Positions 1,065 through 7,482 of a DNA stretch of 9,452 nt are shown in pieces. Where the stretch lies: IMG/VR virus record IMGVR_UViG_2711768048_000004. One strand, given 5' to 3'. Below the pieces are notes generated by a model. That model was not told the DNA's origin, did no database searches, and saw only the letters and a list, made by a program, of their open reading frames with translations. How positions within the stretch are numbered: position 1 is the stretch's first letter; each line of letters begins with the position of its first letter. The translations under genes were made by a program, and so were the position numbers. The DNA comes from a virus. Taxonomy: Duplodnaviria; Heunggongvirae; Uroviricota; Caudoviricetes.

Positions 1065-1325
1065 TTATAGTTGAATAAGCCACTCGATATCTGGTGCTAC
1101 GGAAGTGTCCACACGGTTTAGCAGCACCCGATACTTTTTTCAGGCTTCCAGCAACGATCTTTCTTCCTCCGTTGCGATTTCCAGATCTACAGCATCCTGC
1201 AGTGGCGCAATATACTCACTGAATTCCTGGATGTAGAACTGTGTGGTGACGGTCTTCCAGCCATTCGGCTCCTGCTGTATTGAAGCATACCAGGCTATTT
1301 CAATATCGCTATGCTGCGGCAGCAT
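1065..1325 (-). pseudogene. tfaX: Tail fibre assembly protein (lambda Tfa-like) C-terminal remnant with an in-frame TGA
   Basis: The 61 aa ORF (1140-1325) ends ...EYIAPLQDAVDLEIATEEERSLLEA, matching the lambda Tfa C-terminal region. Past the TGA at 1140-1142 the same frame continues KKYRVLLNRVDTSVAPDIEW to a TAA at 1065-1067; in lambda Tfa the corresponding residue is Trp (SLLEAWKKYRVLLNRVDTS). Confidence 0.6.
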
Positions 1326-1463
1326 TTAACCCCTTGTAATTCATTGCCATAATTGATTTAATTCACAAATAAAACTATAACATGGTGAAATTAATAAAAA
1401 AACACAGATGATGGGGCTAGAATTTACACACCACTTACCCTAAAGCTTTATGACTGGTGGGTT

Positions 1464-2048
1464 TTGGGAGTATCAAATCGGCTTGCATGGGGATGTCCTA
1501 CAAAGGAACACCTTCTTCCACACTTTCTGGAACATTTAGGTAACAACCATCTGGATATTGGTGTTGGAACTGGGTTTTACCTTACTCACGTACCTGAGAG
1601 TAGTCTGATATCTTTAATGGATTTGAACGAAGCTAGCCTGAACGCGGCATCTACAAGGGCTGGGGAATCAAAAATTAAACATAAAATTAGCCATGATGTT
1701 TTTGAACCTTATCCCGCGGCGTTACATGGTCAATTTGATTCCATTTCCATGTCTTACCTTCTTCACTGCCTGCCTGGAAATATATCTACAAAAAGCTGTG
1801 TAATACGCAATGCGGCGCAGGCCTTAACTGACGATGGAACTCTATACGGAGCCACAATTCTTGGCGATGGAGTTGTGCACAATAGCTTCGGTCAAAAACT
1901 GATGCGCATTTACAATCAGAAAGGCATCTTTTCAAACACAAAAGATTCCGAAGAAGGCTTAACACATATACTCTCAGAGCATTTCGAGAATGTTAAAACC
2001 AAGGTTCAAGGTACTGTAGTAATGTTTTCCGCTTCAGGAAAAAAATAG
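1464..2048 (+). CDS. ybcY: Class I SAM-dependent methyltransferase-like protein (ybcY-like); possibly 5'-degenerate
   Basis: Contains a motif I-like glycine-rich stretch (LDIGVGTG) followed by an acidic residue (LMDLNE) and a hydrophobic block (FDSISMSYLLHCLP). There is no in-frame ATG upstream of motif I, only GTG at 1458 and TTG at 1464 with weak RBS. It is convergent with the tail-fibre remnant downstream. Confidence 0.55.
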   Translation: MGVSNRLAWGCPTKEHLLPHFLEHLGNNHLDIGVGTGFYLTHVPESSLISLMDLNEASLNAASTRAGESKIKHKISHDVFEPYPAALHGQFDSISMSYLLHCLPGNISTKSCVIRNAAQALTDDGTLYGATILGDGVVHNSFGQKLMRIYNQKGIFSNTKDSEEGLTHILSEHFENVKTKVQGTVVMFSASGKK

Positions 2049-2055
2049 CATCCAA

Positions 2056-2088
2056 CCGCAGCATGTTCTTGCTTAAGACGTGCTGCGG
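2056..2088. other. Hairpin between convergent genes (possible bidirectional terminator or RNA stabiliser)
   Basis: Inverted repeat ccgcagcatg (2056-2065) / cgtgctgcgg (2079-2088) with an inner tctt/aaga extension and a 4-nt loop. A U-run follows on the minus strand only after an 8-nt spacer. Confidence 0.3.
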
Positions 2089-2102
2089 CATAATCCCAAT
2101 GA

Positions 2103-2636
2103 TTACTCCCTGACAGGGTTCGTAGGCCACTCAATATCAGGTGCAGTTGATGTATCAACACGGTTCAGCAACCCTTCCGGCTTATTAGCAGAATATGCTG
2201 GTGACGTATGAATCGTCACGCTGGCATTACTGGTATAATCCCATTGAATATTTACACCAGTCGCATAATTTCCGATTGCAACGTAAATATCGTAAGTATC
2301 ACCAGATGTATTGACCCAGGCAAAATTTGTAAACCCTGTCGATGTGCGCTGCCATAAAGCACCAGTAATCCCCTTCGGATTACCATTACCTGCACGCAAA
2401 ACAAGTTCAGATATACCTGCCTGTTGAGGTGACCCCACGTTAAATCCCGCGCCACCAATCAACGTAATTGAAACAACAGAACTCGCCTGTGGCATGGTTA
2501 CCGTTGCTAATTTGAACCAACCAGCACCACCGCTGAATGACATTGTTGTTGAGTTAAGCGTACCAATATCTTTCGGCGTCAGTGTTATATCCGCTGAAAG
2601 CGCCTTACCATTCACCTTACGGGCAGAAGGCATCAT
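2103..2636 (-). CDS. Phage tail fibre / tail-fibre-assembly family remnant (tfaD-like) with a lambda-Tfa-type C-terminus
   Basis: The N-terminal part (VNGKALSADITLTPKDIG, glycine-rich repeats GGAGWF, IGGAGFNVG) looks like a tail fibre or adhesin. The C-terminus (LLNRVDTSTAPDIEWPTNPVRE) matches the lambda Tfa C-terminus. The DNA at 2128-2175 is roughly 75-80 percent identical by eye to 1081-1125. Confidence 0.5.
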   Translation of the reverse strand: MMPSARKVNGKALSADITLTPKDIGTLNSTTMSFSGGAGWFKLATVTMPQASSVVSITLIGGAGFNVGSPQQAGISELVLRAGNGNPKGITGALWQRTSTGFTNFAWVNTSGDTYDIYVAIGNYATGVNIQWDYTSNASVTIHTSPAYSANKPEGLLNRVDTSTAPDIEWPTNPVRE

Positions 2637-2732
2637 TAACGGATAACGCCAGCGTCGCGGGTGCCTCTCCGGCAGTCAGGCTGTCACCGGACACCGCATC
2701 CGTCAGGCGGCTGATCCCAAGCTGGCCTGCAA

Positions 2733-2765
2733 GCGCACAAAAGAAAACCCGCGCATAGGCGGGTT
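2733..2765 (-). terminator. Rho-independent terminator on the minus strand
   Basis: Stem aaacccgc (2745-2752) / gcgggtt (2759-2765) with a 6-nt loop; on the minus strand it is followed by TTTTCTTTTGTG. Confidence 0.45.
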
Positions 2766-2791
2766 CAAGCATAAGCGGCTCATTAAAGGCC

Positions 2792-2959
2792 ATGCTGGCA
2801 ATATGCGGGAGATTTCCTAACCAAATGATTGAACAAATTAACATCGCTCTTGAGCAAAAAGGGTCCGGGAATTTCTCAGCCTGGGTCATTGAAGCCTGCC
2901 GTCGGAGGCTAACGTCAGAAAAGAGAGCATATACATCAATTAAAAGTGATGAAGAATGA
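2792..2959 (+). CDS. Small hypothetical protein, possibly ylcI-like (44-55 aa), with a ribbon-helix-helix-like motif
   Basis: Reading from the ATG at 2825 gives MIEQINIALEQKGSGNFSAWVIEACRRRLTSEKRAYTSIKSDEE, stop at 2957-2959; an in-frame ATG at 2792 is an alternative start. The RBS is weak and the ORF is below the 60 aa track cutoff. The assignment is from memory of a DLP12 small ORF in this position. Confidence 0.4.
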   Translation: MLAICGRFPNQMIEQINIALEQKGSGNFSAWVIEACRRRLTSEKRAYTSIKSDEE

Positions 2960-3123
2960 ACATCCCGCGTTCTTCCCTCCGAACAGGACGATATTGTAAA
3001 TTCACTTAATTACGAGGGCATTGCAGTAATTGAGTTGCAGTTTTACCACTTTCCTGACAGTGACAGACTGCGTGTTGGCTCTGTCACAGGTTAAGTAGTT
3101 TGAATGATTAGCAGTTATGGTGA

Positions 3124-3615: not shown

Positions 3616-4026
3616 ATGGCTCAGGTTGCCATTTTTAAAGAAATATTCGATCAAGTGCGAAAAGATTTAAACTGTGAATTGTTTTATTCTGAACTAAAAC
3701 GTCACAATGTCTCACATTATATTTACTATCTAGCCACAGATAATATTCACATTGTGTTAGAAAACGATAACACCGTGTTAATAAAAGGACTTAAAAAGGT
3801 TGTAAATGTTAAATTCTCAAGAAATACGCATCTTATAGAAACGTCCTATGATAGGTTGAAATCAAGAGAAATCACATTTCAGCAATACAGGGAAAATCTT
3901 GCTAAAGCAGGAGTTTTCCGATGGATTACAAATATCCACGAACATAAAAGATATTACTATACCTTTGATAATTCATTACTATTTACTGAGAGCATTCAGA
4001 ACACTACACAAATCTTTCCACGCTAA
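3616..4026 (+). CDS. ybcV: DUF1398-family protein (YbcV/YdfO-like), 136 aa
   Basis: The C-terminal region ([43 protein letters not shown]) matches the YdfO/YbcV family as recalled. The ATG at 3616 has a GGAAGG RBS 7 nt upstream. Alternative starts are the ATG at 3574 and the TTG at 3493 used by the ORF track. Confidence 0.7.
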
Positions 4027-4316
4027 ATCATAACGTCCGGTTTCTTCCGTGTCAGCACCGGGGTGTTGGCATAATACAATACATGTACGCGCTAAACCCT
4101 GTGTGCATCGTTTTTAATTATTCCCGGACACTCCCGCAGAGAAGTTCCCCGTCAGGGCTGTGGACATAGTTAATCCGGGAATACAATGACGATTCATCGC
4201 ACCTGGCATACATTAATAAATATTAACAATATGAAATTTCAACTCATTGTTTAGGGTTTGTTTAATTTTCTACACATACGATTCTGCGAACTTCAAAAAG
4301 CATCGGGAATAACACC

Positions 4317-4610
4317 ATGAAAAAAATGCTACTCGCTACTGCGCTGGCCCTGCTTATTACAGGATGTGCTCAACAGACATTTACTGTTCAAAACAAACAG
4401 ACAGCAGTAGCACCAAAGGAAACCATCACCCATCATTTCTTCGTTTCTGGAATTGGGCAGAAGAAAACTGTCGATGCAGCTAAAATTTGTGGCGGCGCAG
4501 AAAATGTTGTTAAAACAGAAACCCAGCAAACATTCGTAAATGGATTGCTCGGTTTTATTACTTTAGGCATTTATACTCCGCTGGAAGCGCGTGTGTATTG
4601 CTCAAAATAA
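4317..4610 (+). CDS. bor: Bor outer-membrane lipoprotein (serum-resistance protein of lambdoid phages)
   Basis: The 97 aa product is a near match to lambda Bor as recalled. It has a lipoprotein signal peptide with lipobox LITGC and is transcribed opposite to the lysis genes, as in lambda. Confidence 0.9.
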   Translation: MKKMLLATALALLITGCAQQTFTVQNKQTAVAPKETITHHFFVSGIGQKKTVDAAKICGGAENVVKTETQQTFVNGLLGFITLGIYTPLEARVYCSK

Positions 4611-4641
4611 TTGCATGAGTTGCCCATCGATATGGTCAGCT

Positions 4642-5103
4642 CTATCTGCACTGCTCATTAATATACTTCTGGGTTCCTTCCAGTTGTTTTTGCATAGTGA
4701 TCAGCCTCTCTCTGAGGGTGAAATAATCCCGTTCAGCGGTGTCTGCCAGTCGGGGGGAGGCTGCATTATCCACGCCGGAGGCCGTGGTGGCTTCACGCAC
4801 TGACTGACAGACTGCTTTGATGTGCAACCGACGACGACCAGCGGCAACATCATCACGCAGAGCATCATTTTCAGCTTTCGCATCAGCTAACTCCTTCGTG
4901 TATTTTGCATCGAGCGCAGCAACATCACGCTGACGCATCTGCATGTCAGTAATTGCCGCGTTCGCTAGCTTCAGTTCTCTGGCATTTTTGTCGCGCTGGA
5001 CTTTGTAGGCGATTGCGTTATCACGGTAATGATTGACCGCCCATGACAGGCTGACGATGATGCAGATAATCAGAGCGGATATAATCGCGGTTACTCTGCT
5101 CAC
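4642..5103 (-). CDS. Rz: Rz i-spanin (inner-membrane spanin subunit)
   Basis: Near-identical to lambda Rz as recalled ([10 protein letters not shown]...YINEQCR). The likely start is the GTG at 5103-5101, overlapping the endolysin stop (GTGA); the track start at 5115 is another upstream GTG. Confidence 0.9.
4701..4883 (-). CDS. Rz1: Rz1 o-spanin lipoprotein, embedded in the +1 frame of Rz
   Basis: The 60 aa product has a signal peptide with lipobox VVVGC and a proline-rich segment ([15 protein letters not shown]), near-identical to lambda Rz1. AGGAG RBS 7 nt upstream of the ATG. Confidence 0.85.
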
Positions 5104-5597
5104 TGTTGCCCCCACAAACAGACTTCACGCTCAATCTCACGACGAGTCATCAGGCCTTTCCATTGCTTACCGCCAGCGTATGTCCAGCGACGCAGCTGAT
5201 CACATGCGCCTTTGATATCGCCCTGGTTTATTTTGCGAAGAAGCGTCGATGTTCTAAAATTGCCAGCACCCACGTTGTAAACGAATGAGTAAAGAGCGCC
5301 GCGCGTTGTTTCCGGTATATCGACTTTGATATACGGGTTAATTTGTCTGGCGACAGTGGCAAGGTCTTTATTCAAGAGTGCTTTGCATTCTGCTTTGGTA
5401 TACGTTTTACCGAGCATGATGTCTTTTCCGGTGTGTCCGTGACATACAGTCCATACACCAACAATATCTTTGTATGGTATGTAGCTGACACCTTCCAGAC
5501 CATCGTTACCACTTGGGCCAGTGATTAACACTGATGCTATAGCAATTGCTCCGCCACCAATAGCAGCAGCAACGGCTTTTCGTAATGATGGAGGCAT
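5100..5597 (-). CDS. R: SAR endolysin (phage 21 R-type lysozyme with N-terminal signal-anchor-release domain)
   Basis: 165 aa with an N-terminal Gly/Ala-rich weakly hydrophobic segment ([20 protein letters not shown]) and the T4-lysozyme-like catalytic spacing E-x8-D-x5-T ([16 protein letters not shown]). The start overlaps the holin stop (TAATG). Confidence 0.9.
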
Positions 5598-5957: not shown

Positions 5958-6384
5958 AAGCTGTGTGACGAAGTAACCACTCTTAACAGCATAACCAATT
6001 TTTTACGTACGTAAACCACTAAATGATATTTGAGAGAATGCTACCGAGTATTGAAAACACCACTACAAATACATAAGCAAATCTCAACAAATAACCAAAA
6101 AATAATTTCCAGTGTTATTTTTAGCCGGTTTAAATTGAACCTTCAAATTATAGAGCACTTATAAATAACAGCCGTTAATATAAATTGGCTAATAGATTTA
6201 TTTTTATTCAGCCAAGAGCCATGAATAGGATTCGATAGAAAAAAGTTCAGATAAAAATAGAGATCTACTTCACAAATCAAACGAGAAACCAAAACTTACA
6301 TCTTGAAATAATCACATTGATTAGATGAATATTTATCGCGCAGTGACATCATTTTTTAATAATAGTTCAAAAAAAGGGCTCACG

Positions 6385-7482
6385 ATGAAAAAATTAACAG
6401 TGGCAATTTCTGCTGTAGCTGCATCAGTACTGATGGCGATGTCTGCTCAGGCAGCTGAAATTTATAATAAAGACAGTAACAAGCTGGATCTGTACGGGAA
6501 AGTTAATGCTAAGCACTACTTCTCCTCTAATGATGCAGATGATGGTGATACTACTTATGCCCGTCTTGGCTTCAAAGGTGAAACCCAAATCAACGATCAA
6601 CTGACTGGTTTCGGTCAGTGGGAATATGAATTCAAAGGCAACCGCGCTGAATCTCAAGGTTCCTCCAAAGATAAAACCCGTCTTGCCTTCGCTGGCCTGA
6701 AATTCGGTGACTACGGCTCCATCGATTACGGCCGTAACTACGGTGTAGCATACGACATCGGTGCGTGGACTGACGTCCTGCCAGAATTCGGTGGTGACAC
6801 TTGGACTCAAACCGACGTGTTCATGACTCAACGTGCAACTGGTGTTGCAACCTATCGTAACAACGACTTCTTTGGTCTGGTTGATGGTCTGAACTTTGCT
6901 GCTCAGTACCAAGGCAAAAACGATCGTAGCGATTTCGATAACTACACTGAAGGTAACGGTGATGGCTTCGGTTTCTCTGCTACCTATGAATACGAAGGAT
7001 TCGGTATCGGTGCAACTTATGCGAAATCTGATCGTACCGACACTCAAGTTAATGCAGGGAAAGTTCTTCCTGAAGTATTTGCTTCCGGTAAAAATGCAGA
7101 AGTTTGGGCCGCAGGTCTGAAATATGACGCTAACAACATTTACCTGGCCACTACCTATTCTGAAACCCAGAATATGACTGTATTTGCTGATCACTTCGTT
7201 GCTAATAAAGCCCAAAACTTCGAAGCTGTTGCACAATATCAGTTCGATTTCGGTCTGCGTCCGTCCGTTGCTTACCTGCAATCTAAAGGTAAGGATCTTG
7301 GAGTATGGGGCGATCAGGACTTAGTCAAATATGTTGATGTAGGTGCAACCTATTACTTCAACAAAAATATGTCTACTTTCGTTGATTACAAAATCAACCT
7401 GCTTGACAAAAATGACTTCACTAAAGCACTCGGTGTAAGCACTGATGACATCGTTGCTGTAGGTCTGGTTTACCAGTTCTAA
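6385..7482 (+). CDS. nmpC: OmpC-family general porin (NmpC / Lc / OmpD-like), phage-borne
   Basis: 365 aa with a classic Sec signal peptide ([23 protein letters not shown], cleavage after AQA), porin hallmarks ([15 protein letters not shown] start of mature protein, aromatic-rich beta strands, C-terminal ...VGLVYQF). It sits between Q and the holin on the opposite strand, as in DLP12 and PA-2. Confidence 0.9.

Follow-up and report, generated by a model that had tools for sequence, protein, structure and literature searches.

The 9,452-nt stretch of virus record IMGVR_UViG_2711768048_000004 in IMG/VR (hereafter the window, with position 1 as its first letter) contains a rightward open reading frame (ORF) that a preliminary description, made from the sequence alone, had presented as a methyltransferase gene among tail-fibre remnants. 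Our analysis identified this ORF as ybcY, a cargo gene in the b region (tail-fibre genes to attachment site) of the cryptic lambdoid Escherichia coli prophage DLP12, and indicated that the K-12-type allele found here is dead, a reading to which we assign a probability of about 0.9. That ybcY is a pseudogene is already known and annotated, and as a known pseudogene of the best-studied bacterial genome it matters little as a feature of the window. What the analysis adds is the exact inactivating lesion, namely loss of the start codon by a 2-bp deletion plus the substitution F125S, and the assignment of the true start.

Identity of ybcY and the lesion in the window

Over positions 1300-2150, the window matched E. 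coli K-12 MG1655 and derivative strains at 100% identity. The MG1655 locus carries the PGAP/RefSeq label 'class I SAM-dependent methyltransferase, frameshifted' (pseudogene; SAM, S-adenosylmethionine) and lies at the right end of DLP12, between the appY-adjacent tfa remnant and a second tfa remnant; its neighbours (appY, tfaX, ybcY, and tfaD) match those in the window. The locus is named ybcY by Shimada et al. 2014 (PMC3946193), Desloges et al. 2019 (PMC6854850), and Garcia-Contreras et al. 2008 (PMC2408971), and the record of phage PhiR26_1 labels its intact homologue 'putative uncharacterized protein YbcY'. A literature search for 'ybcY' returned lists, context descriptions, and one negative phenotype, with nothing further found, and searches under the accessions or the PHROG identifier and for a moron methyltransferase at tail fibres found nothing.

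To locate the lesion, the window was aligned with two intact reference alleles, those of Escherichia phage 2G7b (YP_009909997.1) and CFT073 (WP_000742375.1). The start region reads TTAATGAAAAAAAAC in the intact alleles and TTAAT--AAAAAAAC in the window, and the longer 5'-end alignment sets ...ATGGTGAAATTAATGAAAAAAAACACAGAT... in the intact alleles against ...ATGGTGAAATTAAT--AAAAAAACACAGAT... in the window, revealing a 2-bp deletion (GA) between 1395 and 1396 relative to both references. The ancestral gene encodes a 218-aa protein starting at the ATG of ...GGTGAAATTAATGAAAAAAAAC...; the deletion therefore turns this ATG into ATA, brings a TAA into the methyltransferase frame, and puts the upstream ATG at 1382 out of register with the methyltransferase. 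Read along the methyltransferase frame, the TAA at 1395-1397 precedes a run of 216 sense codons (1398-2045), which a stop codon closes at 2046-2048 (+), and the window allele lacks the start codon expected of a functional gene. The search for intact full-length homologues proposed in the preliminary description thus served to locate the ancestral start.

Judged from these alignments, the second ATG is the real start, and ATG 1382 is not a conserved start, for four reasons. The aligned Met (M5) is invariant in 58/58 homologues; the first ATG is replaced by ACG in CFT073, whose RefSeq protein begins at the second; GGTGA sits 5 nt upstream of the second ATG; and the first ATG abuts the -10 hexamer of a published predicted promoter.

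In addition to the deletion, four substitutions distinguish the window from 2G7b; two are synonymous and two produce K14R and F125S. The latter falls within the SISMFYLLHC block, where strand beta-4 ends, and across the 58 homologues column 125 is occupied by F (53), Y (4), or L (1) and never by S; F125S is therefore probably a second inactivating hit, in a nearly invariant hydrophobic core residue beside the SAM/substrate site. The decay of ybcY is a recent, lineage-restricted event, since only these four further substitutions separate the window from a live phage allele and since the dead allele is largely limited to K-12 and close relatives. The earlier suspicion of a recent pseudogene, which agrees with the PGAP 'frameshifted' flag, was thereby borne out.

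Enzyme class, fold, and candidate substrate of the intact protein

The product of ORF 1398-2048 shared 98% identity with P0002 (a cluster comprising 6,589 sequences), and P0002 matched phrog_2132 over profile positions 1-218 of 218 with an E value of 3.2e-156, which places it in the YbcY family. The class I motif I pattern hh[D/E]hGxGxG occurs after strand beta-1 as LDIGVGTG, with D59, G61, G63, and G65 invariant across the 58 homologues. The acidic residue ending beta-2, D81, lies 20 residues past G61 and is likewise invariant, and H105-D106 of motif III, which includes the acidic residue typical of class I enzymes, is invariant or nearly so; from this conservation, D81 is predicted to bind the ribose hydroxyls of SAM and the acidic residue of H105-D106 to lie close to the adenine. 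A hidden Markov model (HMM) search of the ORF taken from TTG 1464 gave 37.8 bits for Methyltransf_12 of Pfam (cut-off 30, E 3.2e-9), and Methyltransf_23, _25, and _11 also exceeded their Pfam gathering scores. A regex scan found no [DNS]PP[YFW] or PCQ motif in the ORF, and the single ENV, at residue 197, lies outside any C5 context, so that neither the N6-A/N4-C nor the C5 signatures of a DNA methyltransferase were present; no PADLOC model matched the YbcY protein. These results, together with the seven-stranded beta-sheet fold described below, support a class I SAM-dependent methyltransferase of the small-molecule type rather than a DNA methyltransferase, and on both counts, the class I motifs and the missing DPPY-type and PCQ signatures, the initial reading of the ORF held.

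Structure prediction with AlphaFold2 from a 58-sequence alignment yielded a model with a predicted local distance difference test score (pLDDT) of 91.2 and a predicted template modelling score (pTM) of 0.88, in which a two-helix N-terminal lid covers a seven-stranded Rossmann-type core; this was the second check suggested in the preliminary description, and it agreed with the HMM result. The lid residues Y16, Y24-D25-W26-W27, and W37 are invariant in the homologue alignment. Among solved structures in the PDB, the sequence profile retrieved only juvenile hormone acid O-methyltransferase (JHAMT; E 1.6e-5) and UbiG (1e-3). The top fold match was Rt-PmtA of R. thermophilum (PDB 8ys9), at 13-18% identity and with a narrow margin over other small-molecule methyltransferases; no sequence-level match between Rt-PmtA and YbcY was found in PDB or NCBIfam. 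BFVD returned generic viral methyltransferases only. The nearest folds are those of enzymes that methylate lipids and small molecules (PmtA, JHAMT, and UbiG). With modest confidence, we take intact YbcY to be a methyltransferase that works without a partner on a small acceptor of hydrophobic or amphipathic character, for instance the head group of a lipid, a hydrophobic acid, or a metabolite resembling a quinol.

A partner gene, which the preliminary description had thought worth seeking, did not emerge. We clustered all ORFs within +/-5 kb at 80 genome loci and inspected Salmonella and Enterobacter contexts in addition, and none of these showed a partner conserved across genera. Synteny was limited to single genera, with a crotonase-like gene and CorA in Pseudomonas and an island with IbrA/B-like genes in Proteus. 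Domain fusions were considered as a clue to function and set aside: ten longer family members show N-terminal extensions without Pfam domains, except for one RCC1 fusion, which is probably a eukaryotic gene-model artefact.

Two of these neighbourhoods contain further genes. At five loci in Proteus spp., a conserved 133-aa protein with a hydrophobic N-terminus is encoded about 60 bp downstream of the homologue, and the IbrA/IbrB-like (PAPS-reductase/ParB-like) genes precede the homologue, an arrangement suggestive of an island. In Salmonella enterica, the chromosomal homologue stands near hrpA, 460 bp downstream of a gene for a 516-aa PMT_2 (ArnT-like) glycosyltransferase (3987-5537). Glycosyltransferases of this kind act on lipid or undecaprenyl-linked substrates, so this proximity is a possible link to the envelope, although it is not conserved elsewhere.

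On this view, intact YbcY would be a soluble or peripherally membrane-associated monomeric enzyme that moves the SAM methyl group to a small, probably hydrophobic or amphipathic substrate and not to DNA. Its aromatic N-terminal helical lid would close over the SAM carboxylate and the substrate to form the acceptor pocket, a closure modelled on the Tyr/Trp lid of PmtA and of phosphoethanolamine methyltransferases. The enzyme would work alone, because no partner gene is conserved. Phages may have captured ybcY from the chromosomal gammaproteobacterial family and would carry it as a self-transcribed lysogenic-conversion gene, convergent with tfa and alongside ompT and an alpha/beta hydrolase. A more specific proposal, that PHROG 2132 comprises envelope-lipid or hydrophobic-metabolite methyltransferases with which lysogens remodel the cell surface or detoxify a small molecule, is speculative, and we give it a low probability; if it is true, most natural E. 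coli would hold a methylated lipid or metabolite that is absent from K-12.

Several observations weigh against this functional picture. PHROG 2132 carries no known function, and no NCBIfam equivalog was found (the best scores, for CpaM and RquA, were about 17 bits against cut-offs of 175-180). Methylated phosphatidylethanolamine (PE) is not known from E. coli, which makes a true PmtA activity doubtful. Regarding transcription, the ybcY hexamers listed for the H-NS-bound divergent ybcY/tfaX spacer are a prediction from RNA polymerase binding and not a mapped transcription start (Shimada et al. 2014, PMC3946193). Our own promoter scan chose another site (TTAACC-16-CATAAT at 1326-1353), and promoter-like sites in that scan were no more frequent than expected by chance; no terminator-like site was found in the scan.

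The intact family might instead act on a macromolecule, whether tRNA or rRNA, a protein, or DNA in an anti-restriction role. We consider this improbable. The protein lacks DNA-methyltransferase motifs and any PADLOC or restriction-modification match; it is a bare 218-aa catalytic domain with an aromatic lid and no extra RNA-binding domain; enzymes acting on lipids or small molecules gave its best matches in sequence and in fold; and ybcY points away from the replication and early genes of the phage and lies among envelope-related cargo genes.

Possible residual expression of the K-12-type allele

A second alternative is that the K-12-type allele produces a functional, N-terminally truncated enzyme of 194 aa from TTG 1464. 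As the preliminary description had stated, no in-frame ATG precedes motif I, and TTG 1464 is in frame. Its other candidate, GTG 1458, is an error of register: the frame reads TGG at 1458-1460, and GTG occupies 1457-1459 in another frame. From the stop at 1395 as far as motif I, the frame holds neither ATG nor GTG, and TTG 1464 is the sole canonical alternative. The out-of-frame ORF that it had noted over the 5' end, starting at ATG 1450, does exist and reads MTGGFWEYQIGLHGDVLQRNTFFHTFWNI*. An open frame of 194 codons begins at TTG 1464 and takes in everything from motif I to the C-terminus, and GGTGG at 1456-1460 could be a weak ribosome-binding site. However, this product would be without residues 1-24, with loss of the invariant Y16, L21, Y24, D25, W26, and W27 (P0002 numbering), and without about half of the model helix 18-35. 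It would also keep F125S, the family start is invariantly at the upstream Met, and PGAP calls the locus a pseudogene. Production of an active enzyme from TTG 1464 is accordingly very unlikely, and a dead allele remains the preferred reading.

For transcriptional slippage to be efficient in E. coli, a run of about nine or more identical nucleotides is required. Slippage on the A7 run at 1396-1402, which would make the gene leaky or phase-variable, is suggested by the position of the lesion within a homopolymeric A tract, where loss of one A in the transcript joins ATG 1382 to the methyltransferase frame (MVKLIKNTDD...) and reopens the ORF; yet the run is short, ATG 1382 has no Shine-Dalgarno sequence and is probably untranscribed because it adjoins the -10 hexamer of the published predicted promoter, the allele is fixed, with the same sequence in 380 assemblies and a constant length across the 100% matches that were sampled, and F125S would stay, so that we regard this explanation as extremely unlikely.

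Cassette context, distribution, and comparison with known systems

The features of the ybcY region are listed in Table 1.

Table 1. Positions of ybcY, its expression signals, its lesions, and the flanking tail-fibre sequences in the window
Feature	Coordinates	Strand	Basis or remark
tfaX, degenerate tail-fibre-assembly fragment with internal stops	1076-1325	-	Caudo_TAP; PGAP 'internal stop; incomplete'
Block also present in lambdoid phages and in further prophages of E. coli (tfa fragment, ybcY, tfa 3' end)	1096-2172	.	blastn
Predicted sigma-70 promoter: TTGATT (1353-1358), 17-nt spacer, TATAAC (1376-1381)	1353-1381	+	Published hexamers placed on the sequence
Upstream ATG, PGAP pseudogene start, reads MVKLIKKHR*	1382-1384	+	Out of the methyltransferase frame
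GGTGA, Shine-Dalgarno-like, 5 nt before the ancestral start	1384-1388	+	Kept in 2G7b and CFT073; putative role
ATA, remnant of the ancestral start ATG	1394-1396	+	Alignment with intact alleles
TAA stop in the methyltransferase frame, made by the deletion junction	1395-1397	+	Translation
Residual ybcY coding sequence with stop codon	1398-2048	+	Residues 2-218 of the ancestral 218-aa protein
Motif I LDIGVGTG, SAM-binding glycine loop	1551-1574	+	Translation and homologue conservation
TCT codon, F125S (TTT in 2G7b and CFT073)	1752-1754	+	End of beta-4, SISMFYLLHC block
tfaD-like tail-fibre/assembly remnant ORF, convergent with ybcY	2103-2636	-	Caudo_TAP at the C-terminus

Tail-fibre remnants flank ybcY on both sides, as had been described, with Caudo_TAP matches on the opposite strand. 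The left match lies within 1140-1325(-). On the right, the ORF at 2103-2636(-) is Tfa-like in its last ~20 codons only (Caudo_TAP positions 112-130 at residues 156-174), and the 3' end of lambda tfa matched window positions 2054-2150 at 80% identity. The predicted promoter has TATAAT as its -10 hexamer in CFT073.

The same arrangement was found in live phages. By blastn, the window matched 2G7b over 1096-2172 (97.2%) and CFT073 over 1079-2172 (95.8%), and megablast/blastn searches of phage records recovered the full cassette in 14 lambdoid phages. In PhiR26_1, for which MG1655 is the recorded host, J, lom, stf, and a full-length tfa run leftward and are followed by the rightward ybcY, a leftward 306-bp tfa fragment, and the rightward genes for an alpha/beta hydrolase and ompT; the order in 2G7b is similar, with the integrase beyond ompT. 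Because plaque-forming phages carry the same left tfa fragment, this fragment is a part of the cassette in functional phages and not DLP12-specific debris. As cargo of the b region, ybcY faces tfa in convergent orientation, and the lambdoid gene order agrees with the earlier view of a phage cargo methyltransferase beside tail-fibre genes.

The hydrolase between ybcY and ompT (464-494 aa; 4150-5544 in 2G7b and 1614-3098 in PhiR26_1) is another uncharacterised b-region cargo gene, with an Abhydrolase_1 domain and a TAP-like C-terminus. DLP12 of K-12 is without it and has appY at that place. RefSeq also places a 45-aa 'nucleocapsid protein' (WP_071592174.1) at 1993-2130(-), antisense to the 3' end of ybcY, which looks like a spurious call on the overlap between the tfa 3' end and ybcY.

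A repeat search found no long direct repeats bounding the cassette. A weak direct repeat of tfa 3'-end sequence (1076-1123 and 2123-2170; 48 bp, 77% by blastn) brackets the tfaX-ybcY block, and the corresponding repeat in K-12 is longer (146 bp, 87%). These repeats may reflect recombination between tfa genes during cassette exchange. The idea of a cassette with long direct repeats at its borders was rejected, and the 48-bp, 77% repeat is too weak for a recombination mechanism to be claimed.

The ybcY region was present in 3,938 of 5,426 complete E. coli genomes, so that the gene, a named gene of K-12, is not the unusual element for which it had been taken. A 57-nt probe across the deletion junction matched 380 genomes at 100% identity, and the sampled matches were K-12 laboratory strains, while the intact length (a 59-nt alignment) was found in about 2,890 genomes. 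Within the ORF, 2G7b and CFT073 differ by eight synonymous and two non-synonymous changes, a ratio that indicates purifying selection on the intact alleles; the 50-60% identity of homologues across genera points the same way. A genome scan found these chromosomal homologues, 50-60% identical, in Yersinia, Erwinia, Pantoea, Proteus, Pasteurellaceae, the Pseudomonas syringae group, Xanthomonas, and Dyella, and a profile search of 1.84 billion representative proteins yielded 416 clusters at E<1e-30. K-12 is thus the exception: several inducible lambdoid phages hold an intact gene, as do ~2,900 complete genomes of the species. The lack of a phenotype of the K-12 ybcY deletion says nothing about the function of YbcY, for the study of which a non-K-12 or phage allele is suited.

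Comparison with known systems revealed close and distant relatives of the window allele. The whole window was 100% identical to strains FDN-24 and FDN-9. K-12 ybcY (b0562) shows no difference from the window in the gene itself and carries the same PGAP flag, whereas the surrounding prophage differs from DLP12 of MG1655: positions 2173-2812 stand in place of 1,630 bp that include nohD, and nmpC, interrupted by IS5 in MG1655, is without IS5 in the window. In the window, this DLP12 porin gene is an uninterrupted 385-codon ORF (6325-7482). The 1,630 bp comprise the rest of tfaD, a terminase fragment, and nohD, and because 640 bp replace them, the N-terminal part of the ORF at 2103-2636(-) differs from the K-12 tfaD remnant. 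The intact phage and prophage YbcY proteins of 2G7b and CFT073 are 98-99% identical to the window product, and their genes are likewise convergent with tfa and accompanied by a tfa fragment; the intact copies have an ATG start and F125, whereas the window has ATA, a frame break, and S125.

Among characterised enzymes, JHAMT and UbiG resemble YbcY in the spacing of motifs I-III and in the (S)FYxLH(W/C) block after beta-4. However, the match spans no more than profile positions 41-149, in the Rossmann core, and reaches neither the N-terminal lid nor the C-terminal substrate region; taxonomy and context are unrelated. PmtA combines a catalytic Tyr in an N-terminal helix with a His/Ser phosphate clamp and a membrane-binding basic patch and methylates PE; in Rt-PmtA, the catalytic residues are Y10, H117, S120, and W172. 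The Tyr/Trp-rich N-terminal helix of Rt-PmtA provides the catalytic Tyr10, the SAM-carboxylate ligand Tyr17, and Trp13 of the head-group pocket (PMC11446283). The G53-D73 spacing of Rt-PmtA equals the G61-D81 spacing of the ybcY product, and the YbcY lid, the putative equivalent of the Rt-PmtA helix, holds the invariant Y16...Y24-D25-W26-W27...W37.
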